Source of the DNA: an uncultured Bacilli bacterium
GTDB taxonomy: Bacteria; Bacillota_I; Bacilli_A; RF39; UBA660
Reading direction: 5' to 3'
NCBI GenBank assembly: GCA_949451605.1
Contig: CASTSB010000002.1
Span: 116,771-180,770 of the forward strand
DNA: 64,000 bases
Below are positions 6,159-43,582 of this stretch, piece after piece. Both the position numbers and the translations under genes were made by a program. Below the pieces are notes generated by a model. The model saw nothing but the letters and a program-made list of their open reading frames with translations, ran no database searches and was not told where the DNA came from. Numbering within the stretch: position 1 is the first letter of the stretch; every line of letters begins with the position of its first letter.

Positions 6159-7394
6159 ATGAGAATAGGATTATTTACAGATTCTTATCCTCCATTTATT
6201 AATGGAGTTTCAACTAGTGTAGCAATGCTTAAAAAGGCATTAGAAAAAGAAGGCAATATTGTTTATGTAGTTACGGTAAGTCATAATGTCTTAAAATATG
6301 AATATGATGAAAAAGAAAGAATATTAAAGATTCCAGGCATACCAATAGGTATTTATGACTATAGACTAAGTAGAATTTATCCAGTTTCTATGATTAATAA
6401 AATGAAAAATTGGAAACTAGATGTAATTCACTCCCATACAGAATTTGGAATAGGAATACTAGCGCGACTATTTGCCAAACAATTTAATCTGCCTCTTGTT
6501 CATACTTACCATACTTTATATGAAGATTATACACATTATATAACTCATGGTTATTTTGATAAATCAAGCAAAAAGATAGTAGAGTATTTAACTAAATTCT
6601 ATTGCGATAAAACAGCCAATGAGTTAATCGTACCAACAAACAAAATATATAGACTTTTTAAAGATAAATATAATTTTGAAAAAAATATTCATATAATTCC
6701 TACAGGAATTGAAGTTGATCGTTTCTTTGTAGAAAACGTAAACAAAAAAGAAGTTGATACATTAAGAAAAAGGTTAAATTTAAAAAGAAAAGACTTTGTA
6801 ATTCTCTTTGTAGGAAGACTAGCAGAAGAAAAAAATGTTGAGTTTCTAATAAATGCCCAAAAAACAATTAATAACTATGATAAAAATATTAAATTATTAA
6901 TAGTAGGAGATGGCCCAGATAAGCCAAAATATGAAGAATTAGCAAGATCATTAGGACTAGAAGATAGTGTTATATTTAATGGAAAAGCTGCTTGGGAAGA
7001 AATTCCAATTTATTATCATGTCTGTGACATATTTGCAACAGCATCAACAACAGAAACGCAAGGATTAACTGTTATAGAAGCTATGGCTTCAGGAAAAACA
7101 CCATTATGTATTAAAGATGATTCCTTCTTAGGAACAGTGACAGATGGATTAAATGGTAGAATTTTTACTACTGACGAAGAATATATTTCTCAAGTATTTG
7201 AACTATTTAACAATCCCAATATTAGAAAAAAATATAATGATCAAGCTAGAATTCAAGCAGAACATTTTAGCTCAAAAACTTATGCACAAAGCGTGTTAGT
7301 TGTTTATAAAAGAGCATTAAAAGACAAGACTGAAGAAGATAGATTTGGATTTATTTCAAGAATTATAAAGAAAGTGAGAGAATTAAGTAAATGA
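6159..7394 (+). CDS. GT4-family glycosyltransferase (diacylglycerol glycosyltransferase-like)
   Basis: N-terminus MRIGLFTDSYPPFINGVSTSV and C-terminal GT-B region with a conserved E...E motif region. Confidence 0.75.
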   Translation: MRIGLFTDSYPPFINGVSTSVAMLKKALEKEGNIVYVVTVSHNVLKYEYDEKERILKIPGIPIGIYDYRLSRIYPVSMINKMKNWKLDVIHSHTEFGIGILARLFAKQFNLPLVHTYHTLYEDYTHYITHGYFDKSSKKIVEYLTKFYCDKTANELIVPTNKIYRLFKDKYNFEKNIHIIPTGIEVDRFFVENVNKKEVDTLRKRLNLKRKDFVILFVGRLAEEKNVEFLINAQKTINNYDKNIKLLIVGDGPDKPKYEELARSLGLEDSVIFNGKAAWEEIPIYYHVCDIFATASTTETQGLTVIEAMASGKTPLCIKDDSFLGTVTDGLNGRIFTTDEEYISQVFELFNNPNIRKKYNDQARIQAEHFSSKTYAQSVLVVYKRALKDKTEEDRFGFISRIIKKVRELSK

Positions 7395-8089
7395 TAGTAG
7401 CCTTAAATAATAAATGTAATTTAAATAAAAATGAGTTTATAAGTTATTTAAAAGAATTGGAAAATATTAATACAAATCATGAAATGATATTATGTCCTTC
7501 TTTTCTAAATATAGCTTTATTTAATAATGAATCAAATATAAAACTTGCAGCTCAAAATGTTAGTGAAAATCTAAATGGCGCTCATACAGGAGAGGTATCT
7601 GCAGAACAATTAAAATCTTTTGATGTAGAATATTGTATAATAGGGCATTCTGAAAGAAGAAAAGATCAAAAAGAAGCAAATGAAGAAATAGCTAATAAAA
7701 TGGAAAGGCTTATAGAAGAAGGTATTATTCCTATATTATGTGTAGGTGAAACTAAAGAAGAAAGAGAAAACAGTAAAGAAAAAGAAATTATAAAACAAGA
7801 GCTAGAAATTGCTTTTTCAAAAATTAATTATGAAGATACAAAAAAAGTAATTATTGCCTATGAACCTATTTGGTCAATAGGAACAGGAATTATTCCAACT
7901 AATGAACAAATTAATGATATTTTTAAATTTATAAAAGATAATTATCCAGAAAATAAAGTTTTATATGGTGGAAGTGCCAACGAAAATAATATAGAAACAT
8001 TAAAAGAATGCAAAGATATAGATGGTTATCTATTAGGTGGCTTAAGCTTAAAACCATCCAAATTAAGCGAGTTTGTAAATAAGATGTAA
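7391..8089 (+). CDS. tpiA: triosephosphate isomerase
   Basis: 232 aa with the AYEPIWSIGTG catalytic loop. The start overlaps the upstream GT4 stop (ATGA). Confidence 0.9.
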   Translation: MIVALNNKCNLNKNEFISYLKELENINTNHEMILCPSFLNIALFNNESNIKLAAQNVSENLNGAHTGEVSAEQLKSFDVEYCIIGHSERRKDQKEANEEIANKMERLIEEGIIPILCVGETKEERENSKEKEIIKQELEIAFSKINYEDTKKVIIAYEPIWSIGTGIIPTNEQINDIFKFIKDNYPENKVLYGGSANENNIETLKECKDIDGYLLGGLSLKPSKLSEFVNKM

Positions 8090-8099
8090 AATATTAAAA

Positions 8100-8106
8100 T
8101 TCGACA
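8100..8106 (-). promoter_or_regulatory. putative Spo0A '0A box' (TGTCGAA) upstream of the spo0A-like gene
   Basis: The reverse complement of ttcgaca is TGTCGAA, which matches the TGNCGAA consensus. It is a single heptamer. Confidence 0.2.
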
Positions 8107-8218
8107 AAGATAGTCTTCTTTCTCTCTTTTATTTTGTAGAAATGTGTTATACAATGATTATGCTAAGCAGTGTAGTTCAATATAAGTAGTTTTATTGCAG
8201 TTAAGATAAGGAGAGCAA

Positions 8219-8989
8219 ATGAAAACAATTAATCTATTAGTTATTGAAGATAACAAAGACTTAGTAGTAACAATGAAGAAATACTTCGAAAAGAATTCTA
8301 ATATTAAAATAAGTTTTGAAGCTAATGATGGAGAAGAAGCAGAAAGACTTATTACATCTAAACAAGATGAATATGATTTAATATTATTAGAACCTTTATT
8401 ACCTAAAAAAGATGGTCTAAGTGTATTAGAATTTATGAAAGATAAAAATATTGATAAAAAAGTTATAATATTTAGTTCTTATAAAGATACAGATATTCTT
8501 AAAAGATCTAAAGAATTAAATATTGCATATTATATGTTAAAACCTTTCGAATTAGATATCTTGGAAAGAAGAATAATTTCTATAGCACAAGATATTAAAG
8601 AAAGCGGAAGTATACTAAATCACGAATTAGTAGAGTTACAAAAACAAGTAACTAAAGTAATCCATGAACTTGGTGTTCCTTCTAACTTGAAAGGTTATAA
8701 CTATTTAAGAGAAGGTATTATGCTAGTTTATTATGATTCTAATCTAGCACATACTATAACAAAAGGCCTATATCCTAAGATTGCGGATAAGTTTTCATCA
8801 ACAGAATCTAGAGTTGAACGTTCAATGAGACATGCTATAGAAGTTAGTTGGAATAGAGGAAACTGGGATATGATGGAAGAAATATTTGGTTATAGTGTAA
8901 GTATAGATAAATCTAAGCCCACAAACTCAGAGTTTATCGTGACTATAGCTGACATGTTAAGATTAGAAAATAACATTTCAAATATATAA
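8219..8989 (+). CDS. spo0A: Spo0A-family response regulator (receiver + Spo0A_C DNA-binding domain), atypical receiver
   Basis: The C-terminal IHELGVPSNLKGYNYLREGI...SRVERSMRHAIEVSWNRGN...KSKPTNSEFI is nearly identical to the Spo0A recognition-helix region. The receiver has E at the phospho-acceptor position (DLILLEPLLPKKDG, where Bsu has DVLVLDIIMPHLDG). Confidence 0.85.
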   Translation: MKTINLLVIEDNKDLVVTMKKYFEKNSNIKISFEANDGEEAERLITSKQDEYDLILLEPLLPKKDGLSVLEFMKDKNIDKKVIIFSSYKDTDILKRSKELNIAYYMLKPFELDILERRIISIAQDIKESGSILNHELVELQKQVTKVIHELGVPSNLKGYNYLREGIMLVYYDSNLAHTITKGLYPKIADKFSSTESRVERSMRHAIEVSWNRGNWDMMEEIFGYSVSIDKSKPTNSEFIVTIADMLRLENNISNI

Positions 8990-8990
8990 A

Positions 8991-9022
8991 AATGATAGTT
9001 AGCTATCGTTTTTTTTTATACT
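8991..9022 (+). terminator. putative terminator
   Basis: atgatag-ttag-ctatcgt hairpin followed by ttttttttt. Confidence 0.5.
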
Positions 9023-9116
9023 ACATTGACGAACAAAAGTTTGTGTAATATAATAAAAAATAGATACAAACTATTTATAATTATAAAGATATAGTTTTTT
9101 TAAGAGGTGACATTAT

Positions 9117-9419
9117 ATGAAAATAATTACTATATGTGGAAGCATGAGATTTAAAAAAGAAATGATTGAAATAGCAACTAAATTAGAATTAGATGGCAAC
9201 CTTGTTATTCAATGCGTATATTTTCAAGAAGAAAAGAAATTAACTAGTTCGGATTTAGATATTTTAGGAAAAATACATTATAAAAAAATTGAAATAAGTG
9301 ATGCTATATATGTCGTAAATGTAAATGGCTATATAGGAGAGTCTACAAAAAAAGAAATTGATTATGCACATTTTTTAAACAAAGAAGTTTTATTTTTAGA
9401 ACCCTTTTCCAATATATAA
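9117..9419 (+). CDS. hypothetical small protein (possibly a nucleoside 2-deoxyribosyltransferase-like fold)
   Basis: 100 aa with RBS agaggtga upstream. No confident motif was found. Confidence 0.4.
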   Translation: MKIITICGSMRFKKEMIEIATKLELDGNLVIQCVYFQEEKKLTSSDLDILGKIHYKKIEISDAIYVVNVNGYIGESTKKEIDYAHFLNKEVLFLEPFSNI

Positions 9420-9490: not shown

Positions 9491-10768
9491 ATGGAACGTA
9501 AAATAGCAGAGTTTCTTAACAAATGGAAAAAAGATCAGACAGGGAAACCCTTAATAGTATATGGAAGTAAACAAGTAGGTAAAACTTATAGTGTCTTATC
9601 ATTTGGAAAAGAGGCTTACAAAAATGTAGTCTATTTTAATACTGAAAATAATACTAATATTATAGAGTTATTTAAAAAAGAAAAATCAATTGAAAAAATA
9701 ATTATGAATCTTTCTCTATATTCAGGTGAGACTATACTAAAAGAAGATACTTTAATAATTTTAGATAATTTAACAAATAATGACATTGTAAAAGGTATAA
9801 AATTATTTGGAAGTGATCATAGTAACTATAATATTATAGGAATTACTTCCAGAAGAGATAAGCTATCAGAATTTAAGGGCGAAGAATTACAATTCAAAAG
9901 TATGAGTGAAATGGATTTTGAAGAATATTTATGGGCTCACAATGAAAAAAATCTTTCAAATCTTATAAGAGAAAGTTTTCAAAAAAGAAAAACTAATCCG
10001 TTCCATAAAGTAGCACTAGATTTGTTTCAAGAGTACATGATTACTGGAGGTTTTCCAGAGTCAGTAAAAGCTAAAATCGATGGTAAAAGCATTTTTGAGT
10101 TAGATGCAATAAAACAAAAAATACTAGATGTCTATAAAAAAGAAGTTGTTTTATGTGAAAACTTAATTGATATTCCAAGAGGGATTGACGTTATTAATTC
10201 CCTTCCCGAACAATTAAAAAAAGAAAATAAAAAATTTCAATATGGAATAATTGGTAGTGGTAAAAGAGCTAAAGAATATGAAAGCGCTATTAACTTTTTA
10301 GTAAATAATCAATTAGTATATAGAAGTTATAAAATAAAAACTGTTAAATCTCCATTAAGCAGTTGTAAAGAAAAAGAAAGCTTTAAACTTTATGTTCCAG
10401 ATGATGGATTATTGTTTTCTATGTTGCATATAAATTATAAAGAATTAATTACTAATGAAGATATTAAACAAACACTTTATGAAAATCATATAGCCAAAAC
10501 CTTAGTAGAAGCAGGTTACCCTATTTATTACTACCAGTCAGATGGAAAAGCAGAAGTTAATTTTGTAATTCAAAATAGAATGGGAAAAATTATTCCTATT
10601 GAAATAGTTACTAAATCTGCATCAAAAGCAAAATCACTTTCTGTATTTATGAAAAAGTTTACAGTAGAGGAAGCTTATAGAATAACAGAAAATAATTTTT
10701 CAACAAAAAAAGAAATAAGATATATACCAATTTATGCATTATTTTGTTTAAATACTACAAAAATTTAA
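9491..10768 (+). CDS. AAA-family ATPase with C-terminal DUF4143-like region
   Basis: Walker A GSKQVGKTY near the N-terminus. Start ATG 9491 follows RBS gaggaggga. Confidence 0.6.
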   Translation: MERKIAEFLNKWKKDQTGKPLIVYGSKQVGKTYSVLSFGKEAYKNVVYFNTENNTNIIELFKKEKSIEKIIMNLSLYSGETILKEDTLIILDNLTNNDIVKGIKLFGSDHSNYNIIGITSRRDKLSEFKGEELQFKSMSEMDFEEYLWAHNEKNLSNLIRESFQKRKTNPFHKVALDLFQEYMITGGFPESVKAKIDGKSIFELDAIKQKILDVYKKEVVLCENLIDIPRGIDVINSLPEQLKKENKKFQYGIIGSGKRAKEYESAINFLVNNQLVYRSYKIKTVKSPLSSCKEKESFKLYVPDDGLLFSMLHINYKELITNEDIKQTLYENHIAKTLVEAGYPIYYYQSDGKAEVNFVIQNRMGKIIPIEIVTKSASKAKSLSVFMKKFTVEEAYRITENNFSTKKEIRYIPIYALFCLNTTKI

Positions 10769-10781: not shown

Positions 10782-12284
10782 ATGAAAAAACCGATTTTAT
10801 TAACAATTTTAGATGGATATGGATTAAGAGAAGAAACACATGGTAATGCTGTTAAACTTGCAGATAACAAAGTTTTTGAAGACCTTTGGGAAAGATATCC
10901 ACATACTAAGTTAGAAGCTTCTGGCCAGCTTGTTGGTCTACCAAAAGGACAGATGGGAAATAGTGAAGTTGGACATATGAATATAGGAGCAGGAAGAGTA
11001 GTTTATCAACCTTTAGAACTTATAAATAAATCAATTGAAGAAAATACATTTTATGAAAACGAAGAGTTAAACGCAGTATTAAATCATGTAAAAACTAATT
11101 CATCTTCTCTTCATGTAATGGGTCTTTTAAGTGATGGAGGAGTTCATTCTCATATCAATCATCTTTTCGCTATTATAGATTTATGTAAAAAAAGAAATAT
11201 TGAAAAAGTTTACTACCATGTCTTTATGGATGGAAGAGACACTTTACCAGACTTACAAGAAAAATATTTAAATGAATTACAAGAAAAAATTAATACTTCT
11301 AAGATTGGTATTATTGCCACTGTATCTGGTAGATATTATGCAATGGATAGAGACAATAACTGGGATAGAATAAAACTTGCATACGATGCTATTGCAGATG
11401 CCAAGGGTCCTAAATACAGTAATTACAAAGAATTAGTTCAATATAATAAAGAAAACAAAATAACAGATGAGTTTATCGTTCCAAGTGTATTAACAACAGA
11501 AGGAACTGTACATGATAATGATGGAATAATTGTATTTAATTATAGACCTGATAGAATAAGAGAATTATTTTATGCTATTTCTAATCAAAAATTTGATGCT
11601 TTTGAGTGCAAAAAGTTTAATAATCTTAAATTAGTTACAATGATGAAGGTAAGCGATGATGTTATAACAACTAATGCTTTTAAAATAGAAAAAATAGAAA
11701 ATTCTTTAGGGGAATATATTTCTAAACTAGGTAAAGATCAATTAAGAATCGCCGAGACAGAAAAATATGCCCATGTAACTTATTTCTTTGATGGTGGAAT
11801 CGAAAAAGATTTAAATGGTTGCAAAAGAATATTAATAAATTCTCCAAAAGTAGCAACATATGATTTAAAACCAAATATGAGTGCTATTGAAGTAACAGAT
11901 GCCTTATTAAAAGAAATAGAAAATTTTGATCTAGTAATATTAAATTTTGCTAATGGAGATATGGTAGGTCATACTGGAGTTTTAGAAGCTGCTATTAATG
12001 CCGTAGAAACCGTAGATAAATGTCTAGGAAAAATATACGAAAAAATAAAAGAGTTAGATGGAATAATGATTGTAACTGCAGATCATGGAAATTGTGAAGA
12101 AATGTTAGATGAGAATAATAATATTTTGACAGCCCACACTACCAATCCAGTTCCTTTAATTATTACAAAAGAAAATTTAAAATTACACGAAGGAAAACTA
12201 GGCGATATAGCTCCAACTATTTTAGAACTAATGAACATCGAAAAACCTATAGAAATGACAGGCGAATCATTGATAGAAAAATAA
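10782..12284 (+). CDS. gpmI: 2,3-bisphosphoglycerate-independent phosphoglycerate mutase
   Basis: 500 aa. The N-terminus LTILDGYGLRE and the metalloenzyme C-terminal domain (TADHGNCE) match this family. Confidence 0.93.
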   Translation: MKKPILLTILDGYGLREETHGNAVKLADNKVFEDLWERYPHTKLEASGQLVGLPKGQMGNSEVGHMNIGAGRVVYQPLELINKSIEENTFYENEELNAVLNHVKTNSSSLHVMGLLSDGGVHSHINHLFAIIDLCKKRNIEKVYYHVFMDGRDTLPDLQEKYLNELQEKINTSKIGIIATVSGRYYAMDRDNNWDRIKLAYDAIADAKGPKYSNYKELVQYNKENKITDEFIVPSVLTTEGTVHDNDGIIVFNYRPDRIRELFYAISNQKFDAFECKKFNNLKLVTMMKVSDDVITTNAFKIEKIENSLGEYISKLGKDQLRIAETEKYAHVTYFFDGGIEKDLNGCKRILINSPKVATYDLKPNMSAIEVTDALLKEIENFDLVILNFANGDMVGHTGVLEAAINAVETVDKCLGKIYEKIKELDGIMIVTADHGNCEEMLDENNNILTAHTTNPVPLIITKENLKLHEGKLGDIAPTILELMNIEKPIEMTGESLIEK

Positions 12285-32843: not shown

Positions 32844-33614
32844 ATGAAAGAAGATAAATTAGCTATAAAAAAGAAAATTAAATTATATGAAAAACTAGGA
32901 GCAAGAAACTTTCAATCCTTTGTTTTCAAAATAGAAGATATTAAATGGAAAGTTATAAAAAAAGTGTTTCCTAACTATCTTAAATTTGTTGATAAAATGA
33001 TTGATAAAAAGACTATTAAATTCCTCAAACGAGCCAAAACGGAAGACATAAAAGATAAAATTAAAATGATTACTAAAATAGAAAAAATGAAGTCAAGAAA
33101 AGAATATAATAGAACTGAAAATATTAATTATCATATAAGTAAAAGTAATCCAACAGATTTTCTATATTATTTAAACTGGAACAAATCTATTCATAAAAAA
33201 GGACTAATAAAGGATTTAATCTTACTACCAATTACAATAATAGCTATAACAAATAGTGCTGCAATAGCAATACCATTAGTAATCTATAACTTAAGCAGTT
33301 TATTCATTAATTTTCAATGTATAAACTTACAAAATTATAATATTTCTAGAATTTCTTTAATAAAAGAAAAACTTGAAAAACAAGAAAAGAAAAAAATTGA
33401 GAATGACATATCCAATTATGGTGATGCTATTAATTTAGTAAGTAATACTATAAAAGATAAAGAAAATATCCCTACAATCGAAGATATAGTAAATAATATC
33501 AAAACAAAAGCGCAGGCTGAACAATTAAAGCAACTTATTTTAAGAGAAAAACTAGAAAGAGAAAATAATAAAAAAAATATAAAAGGAGGAAAACAATATG
33601 GCATTAATAGATAA
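32844..33614 (+). CDS. membrane protein, possibly glycosyl-4,4'-diaponeurosporenoate acyltransferase-like family
   Basis: 256 aa. N-terminal K.KLYEKLGARNFQSFVFKIEDIKWKVIKK resembles that family. One or two predicted TM helices. The assignment is tentative. Confidence 0.4.
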   Translation: MKEDKLAIKKKIKLYEKLGARNFQSFVFKIEDIKWKVIKKVFPNYLKFVDKMIDKKTIKFLKRAKTEDIKDKIKMITKIEKMKSRKEYNRTENINYHISKSNPTDFLYYLNWNKSIHKKGLIKDLILLPITIIAITNSAAIAIPLVIYNLSSLFINFQCINLQNYNISRISLIKEKLEKQEKKKIENDISNYGDAINLVSNTIKDKENIPTIEDIVNNIKTKAQAEQLKQLILREKLERENNKKNIKGGKQYGINR

Positions 33615-33912
33615 TATAGCATTATATTTTGCAGGAACAACACTTACAGGTAGTGCTGTAAAAGCAATATCTTATATATCAGAGGATAATGAGCCACATC
33701 CAGATAGGGTTAAGAAAGTGGGAATAACAACAACAGTAACAGGAGCAACATTAACAACAATTGCATCTCACTCATTCACAAGACATGCAAGCTATAATGA
33801 AACACATGCTTATATTGAATCATTAAGTGATGAAGAGTTGGCATCCCTATCAGAAATGTTAGAAATAAATGATAATAATATTGATACTGGCAAAAAAGTA
33901 AAAAGATTATAG
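33598..33912 (+). CDS. small protein, paralog 2 (C-terminal AYIESLSDEELASLSE motif)
   Basis: RBS aaaggagga upstream. Carries the conserved C-terminal motif. Confidence 0.5.
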   Translation: MALIDNIALYFAGTTLTGSAVKAISYISEDNEPHPDRVKKVGITTTVTGATLTTIASHSFTRHASYNETHAYIESLSDEELASLSEMLEINDNNIDTGKKVKRL

Positions 33913-33921
33913 GAGATAATT

Positions 33922-34233
33922 ATGGAAGAATTATTTACACTAGGGTTTGCATTATCAAATACATTTGCTGCAGAGGCAATTTTAATTGAACCAGATGATG
34001 AACTAAATGATCATATTCCTATGATTTCTACAATATTTACAGTTGCTAGCATAGACATTACTGTAATAGGTAAGGAATTTATTATTCCTGAAGTTCAAAA
34101 AATGAAAGCAACTTCAGCTTATGTAGAGTCTCTTAGTGATGAGCAATTAACCACTTTATCTGACGTTTTAAACTCAAAAAGCTTACAACTTGAAAATGAT
34201 AATCCTAAAATACTATCTAAAAAGTTAAAATAG
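33922..34233 (+). CDS. small protein, paralog 3 (C-terminal AYVESLSDEQLTTLSD motif)
   Basis: RBS taggag upstream. Carries the conserved C-terminal motif. Confidence 0.5.
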   Translation: MEELFTLGFALSNTFAAEAILIEPDDELNDHIPMISTIFTVASIDITVIGKEFIIPEVQKMKATSAYVESLSDEQLTTLSDVLNSKSLQLENDNPKILSKKLK

Positions 34234-35598: not shown

Positions 35599-36024
35599 AT
35601 GAAAAATGTTTTATCATCTTTAATTTTATATATAATAGCGTACACTGTTGTAACAATTATAGGAATGTTACATACTATTTTTAATATCGTAGTTTTAAAA
35701 ATGAAATCAATGAAAGATAGCACAGGAATGGGAGAAGGTTATGAAAAGACTAAACCTTGGCATCCATTGTATAATATAATAATATTTCCTCTATTTGCAT
35801 TTCTATATTTAAATGGATTAGAAGGCTTAGTCTTAGCTAATGTAATAGCATTATCACTATTATGGGGAACAATAACCATAATTATAGATTTAATTGGCTG
35901 GGTCTTAATAAAACATCCTTGGTCATTAACATTTAAAGAATTTTATGTCGATTATCAACCTTGGATAACACTAATATATCTAACAATATATGCAAGTCCA
36001 TTTATAGCTTACTTTTTTATTTAA
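35599..36024 (+). CDS. hypothetical membrane protein (about 4 TM)
   Basis: Hydrophobic segments are present. No recognisable motif. Confidence 0.45.
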   Translation: MKNVLSSLILYIIAYTVVTIIGMLHTIFNIVVLKMKSMKDSTGMGEGYEKTKPWHPLYNIIIFPLFAFLYLNGLEGLVLANVIALSLLWGTITIIIDLIGWVLIKHPWSLTFKEFYVDYQPWITLIYLTIYASPFIAYFFI

Positions 36025-36103
36025 AGATTAAATCATTGTTTAACAATGATTTTTTTTGTCTCTATTTAAGGTTATAAAGAATAAAATATTACAAGGAGGT
36101 TTT

Positions 36104-36442
36104 ATGTTAAGTTTAAGTTATTTAAAAGAATATATAATGGTTTCAATCGCATTAAGTACAGTAACATGTGCATTTATTCAAAAGACAAAAGGTTTAATTA
36201 AACCAAAATCTTTAATTATTTGGTACTCATTTTTTGTAAATATTTTATTTAGTATAATCTTTTGCCAATCATTTACCAAAATTAATTTTCCTGATAGCTT
36301 ATGGACAGGATTGTTTTCCTTCATAGGCGCAGATACTTTATATAAATCTCTTGAAGGTAAATTATCATCTTATACTGAAATAAGAAGCTCAAAAGAAGTA
36401 GGTATAAAAAAGGAAAATATTCTTAATAAAAAGGAGGGTTAA
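36104..36442 (+). CDS. small membrane protein (holin-like topology)
   Basis: 113 aa from ATG 36104, which follows RBS aaggagg. Two or three TM segments followed by a charged C-terminus. Confidence 0.4.
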   Translation: MLSLSYLKEYIMVSIALSTVTCAFIQKTKGLIKPKSLIIWYSFFVNILFSIIFCQSFTKINFPDSLWTGLFSFIGADTLYKSLEGKLSSYTEIRSSKEVGIKKENILNKKEG

Positions 36443-36443
36443 A

Positions 36444-37127
36444 ATGGAAAAGCCAATTTTTCCTAGTAAATATATGAGGATTACTCAAGGGTATGATGAA
36501 GGTACTCATAAATCATCTTTTGCAATAGACAATGCAGATAAAGATTCAGGCATTAGTGATATATACGCTCCATTTACTGGAATTATTAAAAAGATTTACC
36601 AAAATGATGCTAACGAAGTATGGCTAGAAAGTCTTGAAAAAGTTGAATATCCAGATGGAACTAAAGATTATATGACAATTTTATTTGCTCATAATAATGA
36701 CGTTTCTAACTTATTTGTAGGTAAAAAAATAAATCAAAATGAAGCATTTTATAAAGAGGGTACTAAAGGTAATGCTAGCGGAAATCATTGTCATATAGAA
36801 TGTGGACAAGGTAAATTTAATGGAACTGGCTGGCATAAGAATGCGGCAGGATATTACAGTATAAATAATAGTAAAAGACCAGAAGAATGTTTATGGTTAG
36901 ATGATTCTATAAAGATTTTAGATAGTCACAATTATAGTTGGAAAAGAATAGAAAAATCCACAGAACCTGTGGAAAAAGAAGAAAAACCACCTGTTAAAGA
37001 AGAAGATAATAAAAATCCAGAAAAAGATGAAGAAAAAGAGTATCCAAAAAAATTTAAATATGTTTGTGAAAAAGATGATCTTTATGGAATTTATTTAAAA
37101 AAAGGTGAAACTTTGTATTTAGAATAG
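36444..37127 (+). CDS. M23-like metallopeptidase-domain protein without signal peptide, with Lys/Glu-rich C-terminal tail
   Basis: GNASGNHCHIE matches the M23 motif-2 pattern (compare LytM GNSTAPHVHFQ). Upstream THKSSFAIDNAD may be a divergent HxxxD. No N-terminal hydrophobic segment. Confidence 0.4.
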   Translation: MEKPIFPSKYMRITQGYDEGTHKSSFAIDNADKDSGISDIYAPFTGIIKKIYQNDANEVWLESLEKVEYPDGTKDYMTILFAHNNDVSNLFVGKKINQNEAFYKEGTKGNASGNHCHIECGQGKFNGTGWHKNAAGYYSINNSKRPEECLWLDDSIKILDSHNYSWKRIEKSTEPVEKEEKPPVKEEDNKNPEKDEEKEYPKKFKYVCEKDDLYGIYLKKGETLYLE

Positions 37128-37200
37128 TTTAAATATATTGTAAAAAATATAAAAAAAAGATATAATTACCTTAGAATAGATAAACTGGGGTGATTTACAT

Positions 37201-40200
37201 ATGATAGTCAGGCTAATTAAAAAAAGTAAAATTATAAATTTTAATTTACCTACTACTGTATCAGGTAATTATTGGATTACCGATACTGACTATTTAGGAA
37301 ACACCAGAAATCTTATAAATGTAGAAGAATCCGATGGCAAATGGAAAATAAAAAGTGATTTTGAAACTAAAATAATGGCTGGTTCTAGAGAAATAGAATC
37401 AGCATTTCTTAGTGATTATAGTATGTTCTTTTTAAAAATAAATACAGATAACGAATATGTAATTTTATATTGCTCCCCTAATGCGGATAAAAGCATCACC
37501 ACTTTACAAGCAAGTGATAATACAGATTACATAATAGGTAATGATGGAAAGGCCTCAATCAGTTATTTAAACCCTTTAGTATCAAAACAACATGCTAAGT
37601 TAACTCTATCAAATGGTGTATGGTCCATTTTAGATTTAAGTAGCAAATATGGTACTTATGTTAATAATAATGCTGTATTACAACAAACTTTAGAGTTTGG
37701 TGATATAATTTTCATTTTAGGTTTAAGAATTATTATTATGAATAAAACTATAATAATAAATAATATAGGTAATTATGTTTCATTTGATTCAAGTGTTTTT
37801 AAGAAAATGATGCCTATTGTTCAAAAACAAACTTCACAAGATAATCCAGATGAAGAACAAATCGAATTTTTTAAAGAAGATGATTATTTTTATCGTGCAC
37901 CAAGATTTAAAACTAAGATAGAAGATGTTGATATAACTATAGATCCACCTCCAGGTAAGGAAGCAGAAGATGATACTCCAGCTATTTTATCAGTAGGTCC
38001 AATGCTTACAATGGGAATGGTTTCAGGATCAACTGCATTTACCACACTAAATAGCGTTCTAAATGGTAGTATGGATCTTAGCAATGCATATCCAAGTCTT
38101 TTAATGTCAGGTGGAATGCTTGCAACAATGCTTTTGTGGCCAATAATTAATAAAAAATATCAAGCATATAGACATAAGAAAAAAGAAGAATTAAGGCAAT
38201 CAAAATATACAGAATACATTGAGGAAAAAAGATTAAAAATACAATCAGAAATGAAGATTCAAAGACAAATTTTAATCGACAATTATCTTCCAGTTACGCA
38301 AACTAAAGAAATAATTTATAGTAAAAAAAGAAACTTATGGGAACGTGAGTTAGATCAAGATGATTTTTTAGATTTACGATTAGGAATAGGTTCTACTAAT
38401 TTAAAAGGTAAGATAAATTTTCCACAATCACATTTTGCTTTAGAAACTGATAATCTATTAGAACAAGTTTACAAATTAGGTGCAGAATCAACTATGCTTG
38501 AAAATGTACCTATATCTCTTTCCTTCTTAAAAAATAGAATCACAGCTATTATTGGGTCAGCAAGTATAAAAAATCAATTTATAGATGCTTTAGTACTACA
38601 GATGATTACATATCATAGTTACGAAGATTTAAAAATTGTAATAATGACTGATGAAAAAAACGAAAATCGTTGGGAATACTTAAAAATAGTTCCTCATTGT
38701 TGGAATAATGAGAAACAACAAAGATATTTTGTAACAAATTTAGATGAAGCAAAAGAGCTTTCACTTGCCCTAGAGCAACAGATTCAAGCAAGAAGAAATA
38801 AGGAAACAAATGGAAAAATAGAAAAATCTACATTAGATTATCATCATTACAAACCTTACTACATGATAATAACAGATAATTATAAAATGTATCGTGATGT
38901 TGAATTAATTAAAGATATTGCTGAAATGGATATAAACTATGGATTTAGTTTAATGGTGGTAAGTCCAAGATTAATAAATATTCCTAATGAATGTAAAACT
39001 TTTATTAGTATTGGAGATAAAAAGTCAGGAATATTTGAAAATGAATTAGTTTCTAATAAGCAAAAGGAATTTGCTGCTGATTATGATCCAACATTGAACA
39101 TGTATGAATGCTGTAAAATATTAGCTAATATTCCTATTGATATTGCAAAAGAAGATCAAAATTTACCAGCTAGTTTGTCATTTTTGGAAATGTATAACGT
39201 TGGAATGGTAGAACAATTAAATATTCAAAATAGATGGAAAACAAATGACCCAACTAAATCTCTTCAAGCACCTGTTGGTCTTGATAGGCAACATGAACTA
39301 TTCAAACTAGATCTTCATGAAAAATTTCATGGACCACATGGTTTAGTAGCAGGTATGACTGGTTCAGGTAAATCTGAATTTATAATTAGTTACATAGTTT
39401 CTATGGCTATAAACTATCACCCTTATGAAGTATCATTTGTTTTAATTGACTATAAAGGTGGAGGATTAGCAGGAGTATTTCAAAATAAAGAAACTGGAAT
39501 GAAACTTCCACATCTTGCAGGTACTATTACCAATTTAGATACTGTTGAAATGAATCGATCTTTAGCGTCTATTCAAAGTGAGTTAAGAAAACGTCAAAGA
39601 ATTTTTAATGAGGCAAGAGACAAATTAAATGAAAGTACAATTGATATTTATAAATATCAAGGATTATATAGAAAAGGTTTAGTAGATAAACCAGTTTCTC
39701 ATTTATTTATTATTTCTGATGAATTTGCAGAATTAAAAGCTCAAAGACCTGAGTTTATGGATCAACTTATTTCTACTGCACGTATCGGACGTTCTTTAGG
39801 TGTTCACTTAATCCTTGCCACTCAAAAACCAAATGGAGTAGTAAACGATCAAATTTGGTCTAATACTAAATTTAGAGTCTGTTTAAAAGTTCAAGATAAA
39901 TCTGACAGTATGGATATGATAAAAGTTCCAGATGCAGCTTCTTTAAAAAACCCAGGAAGATTTTATTTACAAGTAGGTTACAATGAATTATTTGCACTAG
40001 GACAAGCCGCTTGGGCTGGAGCACAATACTTTCCAACAGAAAAAAGAAAGAAAAAAATTGATCAGTCTATAAGTATCTTAGATAATATAGGTAATACAAT
40101 TAAGTCTTTAGATACTAAACAAAATGAAGTAACAGTTGAATCCAAAGGTGAAGAAATAACTAATATTGTAAAATACATTGTTAATGAAGCTAGTATTGCT

Positions 40201-41787
40201 AATATCTCTATTGACCAATTATGGCTTGATAGAATCCCAGACATCATATTTGTTGAGAATTTAAGAAAAAAATATAATTATGTAATTGAAAAGAATAATA
40301 TAAATCCAATTATAGGAGAATATGATGATCCTGATAATCAAAGACAAGCTCTATTAACATTACCTCTATCAAAAGAGGGAAATACCATCATATTTGGTTC
40401 AGCTGGTAGTGGAAAAGAACTAATGATATCAAGTATTATATATTCAACTATCACAACACATGATTCAAGTGAAGTTAATTTTTATATAATAGACTGTGGA
40501 GCAGAAACTTTATCAGTATTTAAACAAGCCCCACATGTCGGAGAAATATTACTAGTAAATGAAAAAGAAAAAATAGAAAATTTATTTAAAATGATTCTTC
40601 AAACTATTGAAGTTAGAAAAAAAATCTTAGTTGATTACAATGGTTCATATGACTTTTATGTTAATCATGGAGGAAAGGATATGCCTCTTCTTACAATAGT
40701 AATTAATAATGCAGAAGCTTTTTTTGAAAATTATAATGACTATGAAGATGCTATTTCTCAACTAACCAGAGACTGTTTAAAATATGGAGTTATCTTTATT
40801 TTAAGTACAAATGGTCCAAATACATTAAGATACAAAGTAAAACAAAACTTTAGTCAAAATGTTGTTTTACAATTCAATGATCCTTCAGACTATATTTCTG
40901 TAATACCTGGTGTAAGAAAGAAAGAGCCATCTAAAATCTTTGGTAGAGGATTAATGCTTTTAGATAATATTTATGAATTTCAAACTGCTTATCCATATAA
41001 ACAAGATTTAATGACTGATTATATAAAAATAGTTTGTAAAAAGCTTAAAAATATATGTAGTTACCAAGCTAAAAAGATTCCAGTTTTACCTGAAGTCGTA
41101 ACTCTTAATGAAGTAGAAGAATATCTTGGTAATGAAACAACTCTACCAGTTGGTATAGAAAAAGAATCTTTAGATATTTCAACTATTAACTTAAATGAAA
41201 ATATTATGTTTAATATAACAGGAGAAGACATAACTGCAGAACCTGATTTCTTATTTGGAGTAATCAAGTCTGCTTGTAAAATAGCTTCTTCAAGTGTATT
41301 TGTGCTTGACACTCAAGATATTTTAGAAGATATTGATAAAGGTAATATTGATAATTTAGTTTATCAATCAGGAGATGTAAGTCAAGCTTTAGAATCTCTT
41401 GCAGTAACTATTAATACAAACATTGATAATGGTACTTCTAATCCTATAATATGTATGTTAATAGGGCCTATGAATTTTATGAATAAAGCTGAAGAAGCAC
41501 AAAAAAATCAATTCAATTCTATAGTTGAAGTCTCAACACAACAAACAAATATCAAATTTATTATGGTTGAAACAATTAATAACATCAAGACAATAGCCTT
41601 TGAACCATGGTACAAGAATAATACAGACCTATCAGAAGGTGTTTGGATTGGAAATGGAATAGGAAACCAATTTACTCTAAAAGTTACAACAGCCGCAAGA
41701 ATTTTACGAACAGAAATAGAACCAAACTTTGGTTACACTATTCATAAAGGTAAAGCGAAATTAATTAAACTAATTTCAGGAAAATAG
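37201..41787 (+). CDS. essC: type VII secretion system FtsK/SpoIIIE-family ATPase EssC/YukB-like
   Basis: 1528 aa. Two N-terminal FHA-like modules, two TM helices (about aa 255-315), and three P-loop ATPase domains (D1 Walker A GMTGSGKSE, D2 GSAGSGKE, a degenerate D3). Confidence 0.8.
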   Translation: MIVRLIKKSKIINFNLPTTVSGNYWITDTDYLGNTRNLINVEESDGKWKIKSDFETKIMAGSREIESAFLSDYSMFFLKINTDNEYVILYCSPNADKSITTLQASDNTDYIIGNDGKASISYLNPLVSKQHAKLTLSNGVWSILDLSSKYGTYVNNNAVLQQTLEFGDIIFILGLRIIIMNKTIIINNIGNYVSFDSSVFKKMMPIVQKQTSQDNPDEEQIEFFKEDDYFYRAPRFKTKIEDVDITIDPPPGKEAEDDTPAILSVGPMLTMGMVSGSTAFTTLNSVLNGSMDLSNAYPSLLMSGGMLATMLLWPIINKKYQAYRHKKKEELRQSKYTEYIEEKRLKIQSEMKIQRQILIDNYLPVTQTKEIIYSKKRNLWERELDQDDFLDLRLGIGSTNLKGKINFPQSHFALETDNLLEQVYKLGAESTMLENVPISLSFLKNRITAIIGSASIKNQFIDALVLQMITYHSYEDLKIVIMTDEKNENRWEYLKIVPHCWNNEKQQRYFVTNLDEAKELSLALEQQIQARRNKETNGKIEKSTLDYHHYKPYYMIITDNYKMYRDVELIKDIAEMDINYGFSLMVVSPRLINIPNECKTFISIGDKKSGIFENELVSNKQKEFAADYDPTLNMYECCKILANIPIDIAKEDQNLPASLSFLEMYNVGMVEQLNIQNRWKTNDPTKSLQAPVGLDRQHELFKLDLHEKFHGPHGLVAGMTGSGKSEFIISYIVSMAINYHPYEVSFVLIDYKGGGLAGVFQNKETGMKLPHLAGTITNLDTVEMNRSLASIQSELRKRQRIFNEARDKLNESTIDIYKYQGLYRKGLVDKPVSHLFIISDEFAELKAQRPEFMDQLISTARIGRSLGVHLILATQKPNGVVNDQIWSNTKFRVCLKVQDKSDSMDMIKVPDAASLKNPGRFYLQVGYNELFALGQAAWAGAQYFPTEKRKKKIDQSISILDNIGNTIKSLDTKQNEVTVESKGEEITNIVKYIVNEASIANISIDQLWLDRIPDIIFVENLRKKYNYVIEKNNINPIIGEYDDPDNQRQALLTLPLSKEGNTIIFGSAGSGKELMISSIIYSTITTHDSSEVNFYIIDCGAETLSVFKQAPHVGEILLVNEKEKIENLFKMILQTIEVRKKILVDYNGSYDFYVNHGGKDMPLLTIVINNAEAFFENYNDYEDAISQLTRDCLKYGVIFILSTNGPNTLRYKVKQNFSQNVVLQFNDPSDYISVIPGVRKKEPSKIFGRGLMLLDNIYEFQTAYPYKQDLMTDYIKIVCKKLKNICSYQAKKIPVLPEVVTLNEVEEYLGNETTLPVGIEKESLDISTINLNENIMFNITGEDITAEPDFLFGVIKSACKIASSSVFVLDTQDILEDIDKGNIDNLVYQSGDVSQALESLAVTINTNIDNGTSNPIICMLIGPMNFMNKAEEAQKNQFNSIVEVSTQQTNIKFIMVETINNIKTIAFEPWYKNNTDLSEGVWIGNGIGNQFTLKVTTAARILRTEIEPNFGYTIHKGKAKLIKLISGK

Positions 41788-42291: not shown

Positions 42292-42515
42292 TAGATCAAA
42301 TAAGCTATGATGAGATGGAAAGCTATTCAAAAGAACTTGAAGCAAGTGCAGATGCATTAAAAGCTTTAATAGAAGAAAAAGATTTAAAAGAATTAGAAAA
42401 TTTTGTTGATTCCGTATACAATTATTCAGAATATCTATCATCAACTGTAGAATTACATAAGACTGCAGATGAAGCACTAAACTATTTAGAAAGCAACAAA
42501 AGAACTTCCAATTAA
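42288..42515 (+). CDS. small helical protein (candidate T7SS-associated)
   Basis: 75 aa. Overlaps the upstream ORF by 4 nt (ATGA). Confidence 0.4.
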   Translation: MIDQISYDEMESYSKELEASADALKALIEEKDLKELENFVDSVYNYSEYLSSTVELHKTADEALNYLESNKRTSN

Positions 42516-43582
42516 GGAAGTTCTTTTATATATTTATTTAATTTTAGTTTAGGAAAATAATAATTTAATATATTTTGAAAACTTATTCCATCTTTTGAAA
42601 GTTCATTTGCTCCAAATAAACTTAAGCCTAGAAAGTTTCCAAATCCAAAGCTAATTATTCTAATAAAATTATTATAAAAAATAATGTTAAAGTTTAAAGA
42701 TTTCAAGGAAAGTAGTTGCCTAAATTCTTCCCCAGCAAAATTTTTATTATTAATTACTAAATTCATTATAGAACCATTACTATCAAAATCGGTAATCAAG
42801 CATTTACTATTAGATGTAACATTAATTCCTAACATTTTAGAAATCTCTTCATAATTAAAATCTAAAACTTCTTTAGAATTTGAAGAGGAAAGATCCCATA
42901 GACTACTAACGCTAGATAAATAAGGATAAATAGTATTTTCAAATGTCCTTCCATTATTATTAAAATGGATAAATGGTAAAATAAATTCATTTTCATAACT
43001 TAAAAACATACTATCTGTCACATCTATTATTTTATTAAGTCTAGAAACTATTAAAGTATAATCATTTAACCATAAACCCTTATATAAACTTATATCTTTA
43101 TATTGAAAAAATTTATTTGTATTTTCTAAATATTTATTTTCCTTCATCATTTTATAAGCATAAGTTCTATAAAGAATTGAAATGCATTTCATAGTTTCAT
43201 CTTCCATAGTTGGATTATAAATAGATGCCAATATTCCTAATAAATATTTTTTTAAATTTACTTCAATAAAGGATCCATCTTCTAATTTTATATTTAAAAG
43301 ATAGTCTTCATTAGAATAAGAAGGATTACTTTTAGGAGTTGGTTTACTTTTACTTAAGTCTAAGGTTTTTACAGCAATCCCATCAATAATTAAAAAGACT
43401 TTATTTCCATTAAATTTTATTTCGTTATTTATTATAAAATTTTTAGTTCTTCTTGTAAGTTCATCTTGAGAATTCTTAATAGCTAATTCTTTAGAATATT
43501 CACTTCTCATATCTAAATATAGATAAAGGACATCTTCAGTACCATTATTCTTTATTTCATATCTATAAAACATTATCTTCAC
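42512..43582 (-). CDS. SpoIID/LytB-domain protein
   Basis: KKYLLGILASIY....MKCISILYRTYAYK matches the SpoIID motif E.YL.GVV..E....EALKAQAVAARTYA. No N-terminal TM helix. Confidence 0.5.
   Translation of the reverse strand: MKIMFYRYEIKNNGTEDVLYLYLDMRSEYSKELAIKNSQDELTRRTKNFIINNEIKFNGNKVFLIIDGIAVKTLDLSKSKPTPKSNPSYSNEDYLLNIKLEDGSFIEVNLKKYLLGILASIYNPTMEDETMKCISILYRTYAYKMMKENKYLENTNKFFQYKDISLYKGLWLNDYTLIVSRLNKIIDVTDSMFLSYENEFILPFIHFNNNGRTFENTIYPYLSSVSSLWDLSSSNSKEVLDFNYEEISKMLGINVTSNSKCLITDFDSNGSIMNLVINNKNFAGEEFRQLLSLKSLNFNIIFYNNFIRIISFGFGNFLGLSLFGANELSKDGISFQNILNYYFPKLKLNKYIKELP

Follow-up and report, generated by a model that had tools for sequence, protein, structure and literature searches.

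Background

Among developmental switches under the control of a phosphorelay, Spo0A is the textbook case, and every Spo0A that has been studied experimentally is regulated by phosphorylation (10.1101/2022.02.07.479450), the acceptor being a conserved Asp. Among aspartate-less receivers (ALRs), in which the acceptor Asp is replaced, Glu is the most common replacement (26%), and the S6 table of the same paper contains 7 ALRs among 391 proteins of the Response_reg~Spo0A_C architecture (Maule et al. 2015, PMC4395418). Asp-less receivers of the Glu type are therefore already known, as are Asp-less Spo0A-type proteins, which were tabulated in 2015. A natural Glu at the acceptor position is also found in ChxR of Chlamydia, which is constitutively active (PMC4395418). 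As for engineered regulators, the effect of the change depends on the protein. According to the references cited in PMC4395418 (31-33), Glu can mimic aspartyl phosphate and give kinase-free activation, as in NtrC D54E; according to the same paper's citation of Green et al. 1991, Asp-to-Glu alone does not suffice to make B. subtilis Spo0A, CheY or PhoB constitutively active. An earlier note on the DNA analysed here had assumed that such a change usually abolishes phosphotransfer and sometimes gives partial constitutive activity; this literature agrees that normal phosphotransfer is blocked and that activation follows only in some cases (PMC4395418).

A second point of comparison is the Erysipelotrichia of the Turicibacter sanguinis type, a related branch of the Bacilli with a reduced set of sporulation genes. 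In the parts of PMC13492147 and PMC10868615 that concern them, these related Erysipelotrichia are without recognisable phosphorelay proteins or sporulation kinases (Spo0F, Spo0B, KinA-E), so that activation of Spo0A already appears unconventional in spore-forming members. Their Spo0A is nevertheless described as phosphorylation-controlled in the corresponding part of PMC13492147, with Spo0E/PtpA-like phosphatases present, and that part indicates no change of the acceptor residue. Our literature searches found nothing on Spo0A D56E and nothing relevant on phosphomimetic Spo0A, and acceptor variants are unmentioned in Galperin 2022 (10.1101/2022.02.25.481979) and in Davidson 2018.

Here we describe a spo0A gene with Glu at the acceptor position in a stretch of 64,000 nucleotides, referred to as the window. 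The host is an uncultured gut member of the Bacilli with 27% GC and a reduced genome, from the neighbourhood of Erysipelotrichales, RFN20, RF39 and ML615J-28; NCBI taxonomy lists its relatives only as 'incertae sedis'. Its product resembles canonical Spo0A (B. subtilis, Geobacillus, C. difficile) in two-domain architecture, receiver fold, acidic pair, Ser/Thr, Lys and recognition helix, but differs from it in having Glu at the phosphorylation site, Pro at the following position (D+1) and, across its clade, variable pocket loops.

Results

Identity of the gene

The gene and the domains of its product are as follows.

8219..8989, + strand: spo0A CDS, 256 aa, ATG to TAA (ORF list, sequence, TIGR02875 at 243.7 bits, Pfam Response_reg and Spo0A_C)
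8237..8575, + strand: receiver (REC) domain, aa 7-119 (Pfam PF00072, 1.5e-15; AlphaFold2; Foldseek)
8648..8956, + strand: Spo0A_C DNA-binding/activation domain, aa 144-246 (Pfam PF08769, 8.6e-39; phmmer; Foldseek)
8807..8863, + strand: recognition-helix region SRVERSMRHAIEVSWNRGN, aa 197-215 (phmmer alignment to SRVERAIRHAIEVAWSRGN of 1lq1/1fc3)

The earlier note took the ORF for a genuine Spo0A, and we confirmed that it is an intact, full-length Spo0A orthologue. It scores 243.7 bits against TIGR02875 (NCBIfam equivalog 'sporulation transcription factor Spo0A'), where the curated cutoff is 200 bits, and covers model positions 2-262 of 262; the runner-up NCBIfam family, DcuR, reaches 50 bits. 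The Spo0A_C match spans model positions 1-103 of 104. Compared with the Spo0A structures 1fc3 and 1lq1, the C-terminal domain gives E = 5e-41 (phmmer) with 56-58% identity, the recognition helix is conserved, and the fold matches the solved structures with Foldseek TM (target) values of 0.85-0.92. The receiver in turn matches the Spo0A receiver 5wq0 at 0.85-0.89. The AlphaFold2 model has a mean pLDDT of 88.6, with block means of 96-98 for residues 31-80, 89 for 81-90 and 87-89 for 91-120, and predicts a (beta-alpha)5 receiver (b1 4-9, a1 13-26, b2 29-35, a2 38-47, b3 54-57, a3 66-75, b4 81-86, a4 91-95, b5 102-107, a5 112-123). With a PF00072 match above cutoff, this fold at pLDDT 87-98 and the structural matches, the N-terminal domain is a bona fide receiver.

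Phospho-acceptor position and pocket

The codons of the pocket residues are located as follows.

8246..8251, + strand: Glu10-Asp11, acidic metal-binding pair (alignment columns)
8390..8392, + strand: Glu58 (GAA) in place of the phospho-acceptor Asp, with Pro59 next to it at D+1 (5wq0 alignment; family alignments)
8474..8476, + strand: Ser86, conserved Thr/Ser ending beta4 (alignment column; model beta4 81-86)
8540..8542, + strand: Lys108, conserved pocket lysine in MLKPF (alignment column; after beta5 102-107)

The motifs concerned are IEDN (aa 9-12), DLILLEPLLPKKDG (aa 53-66) and MLKPF (aa 106-110). That Glu replaces the acceptor Asp, as claimed in the note, was borne out by both sequence and structure alignments, and the shift of register by one residue that the note itself had named as a possible source of error was ruled out. 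In the phmmer alignment to 5wq0 the query segment 'dlillepllpkkdgl' lies on 'dvllldiimphldgl', which places E58 over the acceptor Asp; MAFFT alignments with 120 and with 118 homologues put it in the same column, and in the AlphaFold2 model it stands at the C-terminal end of strand beta3 (54-57). The phosphorylatable Asp that ends beta3 in Spo0A (D56 in B. subtilis) is thus a Glu here, and of the residue quintet of two-component receivers (DD, D, T/S, K) the pair E10-D11, S86 and K108 are kept with the central Asp changed. With its acceptor Asp replaced by Glu58, the receiver is aspartate-less by sequence. Retention of the acidic pair and of the Lys had also been noted correctly, and Ser86 can be added to them. 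Among the 120 homologues, position 10 is D in 112 and E in 6, position 11 is D in 116, the Ser86 column holds T in 69 and S in 50, and the Lys108 column is K in all 120.

Distribution of Asp and Glu

A sequencing error was ruled out, since independent assemblies and three other species, L001-L003, share the GAA codon. JGI and SRA assemblies, independent of the present one, contain an identical gene, and the protein was found on 8 and 12 contigs; GAA is present in the independent samples L072-L075, and the corresponding codon in L004 is GAC (Asp). The alignment of orthologues that had been proposed as a check on lineage specificity places Glu in one subclade. In the 120 closest clusters at 90% identity the acceptor is E in 23 and D in 96, and all 23 E-type sequences fall within a subclade that has Pro (rarely Thr) at D+1. 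Across 118 diverse Spo0A-like representatives, only 2 have Pro at D+1. Within this Pro(D+1) subclade, bootstrapped neighbour-joining trees, which are simple distance trees, give approximately 4-6 changes between D and E, and one D-type sequence has 92-93% identity to its E-type neighbours. Every acceptor in the clade is an acidic residue, D or E, and N, A, S and G are absent. The E-type spo0A is neither an error nor a stray paralog.

Locus and copy number

The gene lies between tpiA (7391-8089) and gpmI (10782-12284), together with two further ORFs, and not beside spoIVB, the canonical neighbour of spo0A in Bacillus and Clostridium. The position inside a glycolytic cluster had been called atypical, and this part of the note does not hold for the lineage. 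The order gapA-pgk-orf-LPG_synthase_TM-GT4-tpiA-spo0A-AAA/DUF4143-(gpmI)-dinB is common to approximately 50 related species of uncultured Bacilli, D-type and E-type alike, and the tpiA-spo0A-AAA/DUF4143 context identifies the gene as the orthologous locus of the lineage. Because most of these species carry Asp, the seemingly odd location is unrelated to E58.

The 64-kb window contains no other spo0A, and a motif scan of the genome collection (SMRHAIEV, ME[DE]IFGYS), which a divergent copy or one in a gap of an incomplete MAG would escape, found one locus per assembly in the three closest E-type species. The same scan found two loci per genome in some Lachnospiraceae (L060/L064, L061/L062), and both L027 (Ca. 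Pelethosoma merdigallinarum) and L049 have tandem duplicates of spo0A. The gene is probably the single orthologous spo0A of its host. Outside the ribosomal-protein cluster, approximately 40 ORFs of the window were scanned, and no histidine kinase, Spo0F or Spo0B was among them; nor is there a kinase or methyltransferase partner in the conserved neighbourhood of spo0A. The only gene of a sporulation type in the window encodes a protein with a SpoIID/LytB domain whose score does not reach the SpoIID equivalog cutoff. A split amidase was considered as CwlD, i.e. as evidence of sporulation, and was dropped; with its C-terminal LysM repeats it looks like a cell-wall hydrolase of the Amidase_3-LysM type.

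Upstream and downstream signals

The promoter was assigned from an alignment of upstream regions, and the terminators from folding. The elements are as follows.

8100..8108, - strand: putative 0A-box-like element, TTCGACAAA on the + strand, TTTGTCGAA on the minus strand (alignment of 12 orthologous loci)
8150..8155, + strand: putative -10 hexamer TACAAT of the spo0A promoter, with no good -35 (TAnAAT invariant in 12 upstream regions)
8210..8215, + strand: RBS GGAGAG, 4 nt before the ATG (read from the sequence; AGGAG conserved in the upstream alignment)
8988..9018, + strand: terminator-like hairpin and T-run directly after the spo0A stop (folding)

At 8100-8106 the + strand reads TTCGACA, so that the 0A-box-like heptamer TGTCGAA reported in the note stands on the minus strand; the element lies 111 nt before the ATG and about 42-50 nt before the -10. 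In 12 of 12 orthologous tpiA-spo0A intergenic regions, both D- and E-type, its CGACA.A core recurs without change and at the same position, although the mean column identity of these regions is 49%, and the full heptamer is exact in 8 of the 12. Its count in the window does not, however, set it apart, as TGTCGAA occurs 2 times against 2.9 expected, which is at chance level. The conservation of this 0A-like box suggests that spo0A may be autoregulated. By eye no convincing match to a sigma-H type promoter was seen, and this candidate was dropped.

The hairpin that follows spo0A has a folding energy of -8.8 kcal/mol (z = -3.6), and 0 of 200 shuffles were as good; it lies below the GC-pair threshold of a simple scan. 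In relatives the tpiA terminator folds at -8.8 to -12.9 kcal/mol (z -3 to -4.3), whereas here it is lost (-4 kcal/mol, z +0.4). The simple sigma-70/terminator scan called neither the conserved -10, which has no -35 match, nor either of the two hairpins. An Rfam search of the whole window at gathering thresholds gave 0 matches, so that no known leader or riboswitch goes with the gene.

Selection and constraint

Between E-type species the receiver has a dN/dS of approximately 0.16-0.38, a rough value with dS near saturation. Purifying selection acts on both domains, and the Spo0A_C domain is nearly invariant within the clade. The loops that surround the pocket are approximately 3 times more variable in the Pro(D+1) clade than in its canonical sister clade ('DL'): the entropy of pocket loops, beta4 and beta5 is 1.14 bits (0.86-1.16) in the former and 0.33 (0.23-0.36) in the latter. 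Helix alpha1, in contrast, is more conserved in the Pro(D+1) clade (0.60 vs 0.90 bits), and the diversity of the DNA-binding domain is roughly alike in the two (0.35 vs 0.25 bits). Given the purifying selection, the retention of D11, S86 and K108 and a confident model of canonical fold, the E-type receiver is probably still functional. The note's proposal of phosphorelay-independent control receives indirect support from the toggling between D and E and from pocket loops that appear relaxed throughout the clade in a receiver yet under purifying selection.

Discussion

We consider it fairly probable that this Spo0A works independently of phosphorylation, with its output set by expression and autoregulation. 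The receiver is now of the aspartate-less Glu type, and Glu58 would be unable to join ordinary His-to-Asp phosphotransfer, so that the protein would not depend on a phosphate at its canonical site. Most likely, the carboxylate of this Glu and the three retained pocket residues D11, S86 and K108 would keep the receiver partly in an active-like conformation, and the intact DNA-binding domain would recognise 0A boxes. The output would then depend mainly on the amount of Spo0A made. Expression would proceed from the gene's own promoter with the conserved upstream 0A box (autoregulation), and in this species read-through from the glycolytic tpiA may be added because the tpiA terminator seems to have decayed, as judged from the loss of the hairpin. 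Identity, orthology, Glu at the acceptor, lineage distribution, purifying selection and the conserved cis element are shown by the data; from them we infer lack of phosphorylation, partial constitutive activity, control through expression and any continued role in sporulation. The pocket is intact and alpha1, the usual kinase-docking helix, is strongly conserved, and a phosphodonor-like partner could still bind. An extension of this reading, which we put forward tentatively, is that the whole subclade has uncoupled Spo0A from His-Asp phosphotransfer, with the acceptor drifting freely between Asp and Glu, with relaxed pocket loops and with dosage, through the conserved autoregulatory 0A box and transcription from within the glycolytic operon, deciding activation of the regulon.

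The ALR subtype of ChxR offers a close likeness: its acceptor is a natural Glu, and it keeps the Lys, the coupling residues (Thr/Ser and Tyr/Phe) and the first of the acidic residues. Such receivers are expected to act without phosphorylation, which for the present Spo0A is predicted from the D/E toggling and the relaxed pocket loops. ChxR differs in having an output domain of the OmpR/PhoB type and in not being a developmental master regulator. The Asp-less proteins of Spo0A architecture in Maule et al. 2015 were counted and not described, whereas here the Glu form is a syntenic orthologue across a subclade and toggles with Asp. In contrast to the engineered D-to-E mutants, the change is natural, fixed and recurrent.

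The same substitution can be read the other way, since the insufficiency of Asp-to-Glu alone in B. subtilis Spo0A (PMC4395418) means that Glu58 may give a weak or inactive receiver. It could lock the protein in an unphosphorylatable state of low activity, a weak basal DNA binder that acts, for example, as a repressor of high-affinity 0A-box genes and is kept in lineages that are losing or are without sporulation, no longer as a developmental switch. The residual function of the C. difficile D56A mutant was ascribed to a low level of DNA binding that Spo0A shows when unphosphorylated (10.1101/2022.02.07.479450), spo0A persists in many Firmicutes that do not sporulate (10.1101/2022.02.25.481979), sporulation genes have been lost repeatedly in these orders of uncultured Bacilli (PMC10868615), and the clade-wide relaxation of the pocket loops fits as well. 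We nevertheless regard this as rather unlikely, as simple decay would yield N, A, S or G at an acceptor that is always D or E, the other pocket residues (D11, S86, K108) are kept, both domains are under purifying selection with the DNA-binding domain almost invariant, and the E-type species retain the 0A-like box of the gene's own promoter.

The present gene would be a specialised copy if the genome encoded, at some other place, a canonical Spo0A of the Asp type that took the phosphorelay signal. Paralogs do exist, in tandem or at two loci as described above, two copies are reported in ten Clostridiales genomes (10.1101/2022.02.25.481979), and the host sequence examined comprises 64 kb plus flanks. 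The E-type gene, however, occupies the conserved locus at which approximately 50 species have their (usually sole) D-type spo0A, and the counts of one copy in the window and, within the limits of the motifs, one locus per assembly in the closest E-type species make such a division of labour improbable. Finally, control by covalent modification might persist, with E58 carrying a methyl group or a phosphate (glutamyl phosphate), or with a different residue phosphorylated. Phosphorylation or methylation of Glu is possible in principle (PMC4395418), and the intact D11/S86/K108 pocket with its very conserved alpha1 docking helix suggests an engaged partner; but no case of Glu phosphorylation in bacterial signalling is known (PMC4395418), the conserved neighbourhood holds neither kinase nor methyltransferase, and Pro at D+1 with variable pocket loops speaks against conserved phosphochemistry. 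We therefore give modification very little credence compared with the phosphorylation-independent reading.

A natural, syntenic and selectively maintained Glu orthologue would amount to a natural experiment on kinase-free entry into sporulation, or on whatever role Spo0A has in reduced gut lineages, and the very close D-type and E-type relatives allow an unusually direct comparison. If the subclade has indeed been uncoupled from phosphotransfer, its Spo0A would be a developmental switch that needs no phosphorylation and may be tied to metabolism. A further consequence concerns the prediction, from genomes, of which uncultured gut Firmicutes form spores: at present the presence of spo0A is scored whether or not its product is phosphorylatable.

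Identity of the protein and register of Glu58

We annotated the gene from the ORF list and the sequence, the domains from Pfam and the hairpin by folding, as follows.

8219-8989, + strand: spo0A open reading frame, 256 aa, ATG to TAA
4 nt upstream of the ATG, + strand: ribosome-binding site GGAGAG
8390-8392, + strand: GAA codon of Glu58
After the stop codon: hairpin and T-run (-8.8 kcal/mol, z = -3.6)
aa 7-119: receiver domain (1.5e-15)
aa 144-246: Spo0A_C domain (8.6e-39)

The earlier note had recognised a Spo0A carrying the 0A-box recognition helix, and this identification holds. The protein matches the NCBIfam Spo0A equivalog TIGR02875 over its full length with 243.7 bits (curated cutoff 200 bits), the runner-up NCBIfam family reaching 50 bits. 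The solved Spo0A C-domains 1fc3 and 1lq1 align to its C-terminal domain with E = 5e-41, and the recognition helix reads SRVERSMRHAIEVSWNRGN in the query and SRVERAIRHAIEVAWSRGN in these structures. The AlphaFold2 model (mean pLDDT 88.6; receiver block means 87-98) shows the canonical (beta-alpha)5 fold in the receiver and a helical domain after it, and its top PDB matches are Spo0A C-domains (TM 0.85-0.92) and the receiver 5wq0 (TM 0.85-0.89).

Whether Glu truly replaces the acceptor Asp depended on the register, and that doubt is settled because the sequence alignments and the model agree in assigning Glu58 to the acceptor position. With phmmer, 'dlillepllpkkdgl' pairs with 'dvllldiimphldgl' of the 5wq0 receiver, and the same placement was obtained in every multiple alignment (120 closest homologues, genome-derived orthologues, and 118 diverse family representatives). 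In the model, beta3 spans residues 54-57 with E58 at its C-terminal end, beta4 ends with S86, and K108 comes after beta5. No Asp is found at the acceptor or an adjacent position, the local sequence being L-L-E-P. The alignment of the 120 closest homologues shows E10-D11, S86, Y104/Y105 and K108 all kept, which bears out the reported retention of the acidic pair and the conserved Lys. The observation itself is thus confirmed in every detail.

The allele and its locus

An identical protein occurs on 8 contigs and a variant at least 90% identical on 12, and the same GAA codon with the same neighbours is found in independent JGI and SRA assemblies (loci L072-L075). The Glu58 gene is neither an artefact nor a stray paralog. 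Its nearest relatives in the GTDB species-representative collection are uncultured 'Firmicutes/Bacilli' MAGs. The gene order in the window, gapA-pgk-(orf168)-LPG_synthase_TM-glycosyltransferase-tpiA-spo0A-AAA/DUF4143-(gpmI)-dinB, recurs with its AAA/DUF4143 gene in the related loci L001-L010 and L035, and the gapA-to-spo0A part is common to most of the other roughly 40 loci (Candidatus Coprosoma, Ca. Pelethosoma, CAG:822 and 'Tenericutes'-labelled MAGs). Nearly all loci with the shared order carry the canonical LDL(I/V)MP acceptor motif. The location between tpiA and gpmI, which had been called atypical, is therefore a lineage-wide trait of this reduced Bacilli group, unrelated to E58, and it identifies the gene as the spo0A orthologue.

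Two loci downstream of tpiA hold tandem duplicated spo0A genes, both copies with canonical Asp: L027 (10001-11618) in Candidatus Pelethosoma merdigallinarum and L049 (4387-6003) in a related MAG. In the window, a 100-aa ORF without Pfam/NCBIfam match (9117-9419) separates spo0A from the AAA/DUF4143 gene and is preceded by a near-consensus promoter (TTGACG-17-TATAAT, 9026-9054, 11/12 matches). This ORF is present in L072-L075, which belong to the window species, and absent from L001-L004, where the AAA gene directly follows spo0A.

Distribution of Glu among related proteins

Among the 120 best clusters at 90% identity, the acceptor is Asp in 96 and Glu in 23. All 23 Glu-type clusters fall within the subclade closest to the query (about 49 clusters), in which Pro, rarely Thr, stands at D+1 and the motif reads (D/E)P(L/F)(L/I)(P/S)K; we call it the Pro(D+1) clade. 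Glu occurs in 0 of the 69 clusters of the canonical sister 'DL' clade and in none of some 45 additional species sharing about 50% identity, so that E58 proved lineage-specific in the ortholog alignment. With the 'DL' clade as the root of an NJ tree, Fitch parsimony gave 5-6 changes between D and E, and 40 bootstrap replicates, built without the acceptor column, gave 4-6. Of these, one arose independently in L051, a MAG that carries the label 'uncultured Mycoplasma sp.'. Its E-type spo0A (10001-10729) lies directly between pgk and gpmI, has the same upstream TTCGACAAA box, and encodes 'IIITELLLPGLDG' with EN as acidic pair. The D-type sequence P0021 shares 92-93% identity with the E-type sequences P0020 and P0025. 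The Glu substitution is genuine and lineage-specific, and it recurs.

In a wider sample of 118 full-length Spo0A-like proteins, each standing for one 50%-identity cluster, the acceptor column holds D in 95, E in 11, N in 4, S in 2, another residue in four and a gap in two; Pro follows it in 2 of the 118, and many of these proteins also have a degenerate acidic pair. Because of these counts we regard Asp-less Spo0A-like proteins as recurring across metagenomic diversity. Such proteins, 7 among 391 of Response_reg~Spo0A_C architecture, had already been counted in a 2015 survey of receivers lacking the Asp, which did not discuss them (PMC4395418 S6 table), and Glu-type receivers are known to be common. 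What is added here is an aspartate-less receiver of the Glu type in a clade's orthologous Spo0A, which offers a clean natural D/E comparison and may somewhat surprise Spo0A specialists.

Degenerate Spo0A-like receivers were also seen in Clostridia/Eubacteriales MAGs, with a Glu acceptor and the DD pair lost in L053, L054 and L055, and with the pocket Lys changed to Gln in L059, L063 and L065. In L053 a second, divergently oriented spo0A-like gene adjoins the first. Some metagenomic proteins of 340-454 aa lack a receiver altogether and are made up of three or four tandem Spo0A_C-like DNA-binding domains (P0130, P0131, P0133, P0134, P0146, P0153, P0188, P0191).

Constraint on the receiver

Receiver comparisons of the window gene with E-type L001, L002 and L003 gave pN of 0.14-0.23, pS of 0.41-0.66 and a dN/dS of about 0.16-0.38, which is rough as dS is near saturation. 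The DNA-binding domain is even more conserved, most positions being invariant in the clade. The gene is not decaying. The pattern of constraint on the receiver differs between the two clades, as can be seen in the table, and within the Pro(D+1) clade it is alike in D-type and E-type sequences.

Table. Alignment entropy in bits (bootstrap range in brackets). Pocket region denotes the beta3-alpha3 loop, beta4, the beta4-alpha4 loop, beta5 and the Lys loop.
Region; Pro(D+1) clade; 'DL' clade
DNA-binding domain; 0.35; 0.25
Pocket region; 1.14 (0.86-1.16); 0.33 (0.23-0.36)
Helix alpha1 (KDLVVTMKKYFEEN); 0.60; 0.90

Clade-specific replacements surround the pocket (L59P, I60L, N63K, T86S, N89K, T90D), and F105Y (in beta5) and G101N are also fixed. 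This suggests that the pocket chemistry has been under relaxed constraint since the ancestor of the Pro(D+1) clade; thereafter any acidic acceptor would have sufficed, and D/E flips (GAY to GAA or back, one transversion) would have been nearly neutral. The conservation of alpha1 may reflect a retained protein partner or interdomain contact.

Promoter region

The 0A-box-like heptamer reported upstream (TTCGACA on the + strand, 8100-8106) is at chance level in the window alone, with 2 matches and 2.9 expected. Its support comes from 12 orthologous tpiA-spo0A intergenic regions (mean column identity 49%), where the core CGACA.A is invariant within TTCGACAAA, the complement of TTTGTCGAA. A TAnAAT hexamer is invariant too, 42-50 nt downstream of the box, and both elements are present in D-type and E-type species alike.

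8150-8155: putative -10 hexamer TACAAT of spo0A
L001 9903-9945, L002 9468-9510, L004 9905-9950: tpiA terminator region in relatives (folding)

A promoter scan of the window gave no good -35 element for spo0A, as might be expected if transcription from it needs an activator. Relatives have a strong terminator hairpin after tpiA and ahead of the spo0A promoter (-8.8 to -12.9 kcal/mol, z -3 to -4.3), which has decayed in the window (8090-8140; -4 kcal/mol, z +0.4); with this hairpin lost, spo0A may also receive read-through from the glycolytic genes.

Functional interpretation

A Glu acceptor is not phosphorylatable by the normal route; it mimics aspartyl phosphate in some regulators, e.g. NtrC, and is insufficient alone in others, including B. 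subtilis Spo0A, whereas constitutive activity is found in natural receivers of the Glu type such as ChxR (PMC4395418). Phosphorylation is required by all studied Spo0A proteins, and D56A lowers sporulation more than 1000-fold in C. difficile (10.1101/2022.02.07.479450). Related Erysipelotrichia are described as having no recognisable Spo0F, Spo0B or KinA-E (PMC13492147; PMC10868615). The roughly 40 window ORFs scanned outside the ribosomal-protein cluster included no histidine kinase and no gene resembling Spo0F or Spo0B.

We think that the Glu58 protein probably functions and does not need phosphorylation at the canonical site, its output then being set by expression and autoregulation. The comparative evidence fits a lost dependence on phosphotransfer, and phosphorelay control may have been lost; the interpretation offered in the earlier note is partly supported. 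A low-activity relic in lineages losing sporulation is a less likely account. As to sporulation itself, the SpoIID/LytB-domain protein of the window (42512-43582, - strand) scores 120.7 bits against a SpoIID equivalog cutoff of 234.75, and 82.2 against 83.3 for the generic SpoIID/LytB domain model. A survey of these orders predicted reduced, often functional sporulation gene sets in spo0A-keeping families (PMC10868615). We lean towards partial activation by Glu58 over a low-activity receiver, given an acceptor that is acidic throughout the clade and the retention of D11, S86 and K108.

Phosphorylation-dependent control could also persist through an undetected second, canonical spo0A. We consider this improbable, as there is none in the 64-kb window and a motif-based scan of the three closest E-type species gave one locus per assembly; this is partial evidence, from a scan that did show two loci in some Lachnospiraceae genomes. 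An unconventional modification of Spo0A seems very improbable.

Other loci in the window

Upstream of the SpoIID/LytB-domain gene on the minus strand is a zinc-dependent phospholipase C-like gene (42512-44594 for the pair). Three consecutive ORFs without Pfam/NCBIfam match (256, 104 and 103 aa; 32844-34233) lie between truA and rplM-rpsI. The region 35599-41787 may be a type VII secretion locus: three small ORFs without family match precede an EssC-like FtsK/SpoIIIE ATPase with an FHA domain (37201-41787, 1528 aa).

In the region 50600-64000, an insert of about 13 kb interrupts a cell-wall amidase gene. The N-terminal Amidase_3 fragment (50600-50887) ends '...HINAGGQDT*', and the frame picks up at about 63870 ('GGGEGAEIVYALRNN...'), and longer contigs show it continuing through LysM repeats. 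The insert resembles an integrated element of the defence-island kind and recalls skin-type intervening elements. Its contents are as follows.

HTH gene
51743: Dam-type methyltransferase
DUF6996/6997/7226 protein
DUF6339 protein
58904: OLD-like AAA_15/TOPRIM nuclease
60490: helicase-like gene
62125-63765: large serine recombinase, right end of the insert

The split arrangement was seen in 2 of the 3 contigs displayed (L076, L077), and the cargo gene that we looked up has entries in 48 of the collection's blocks.
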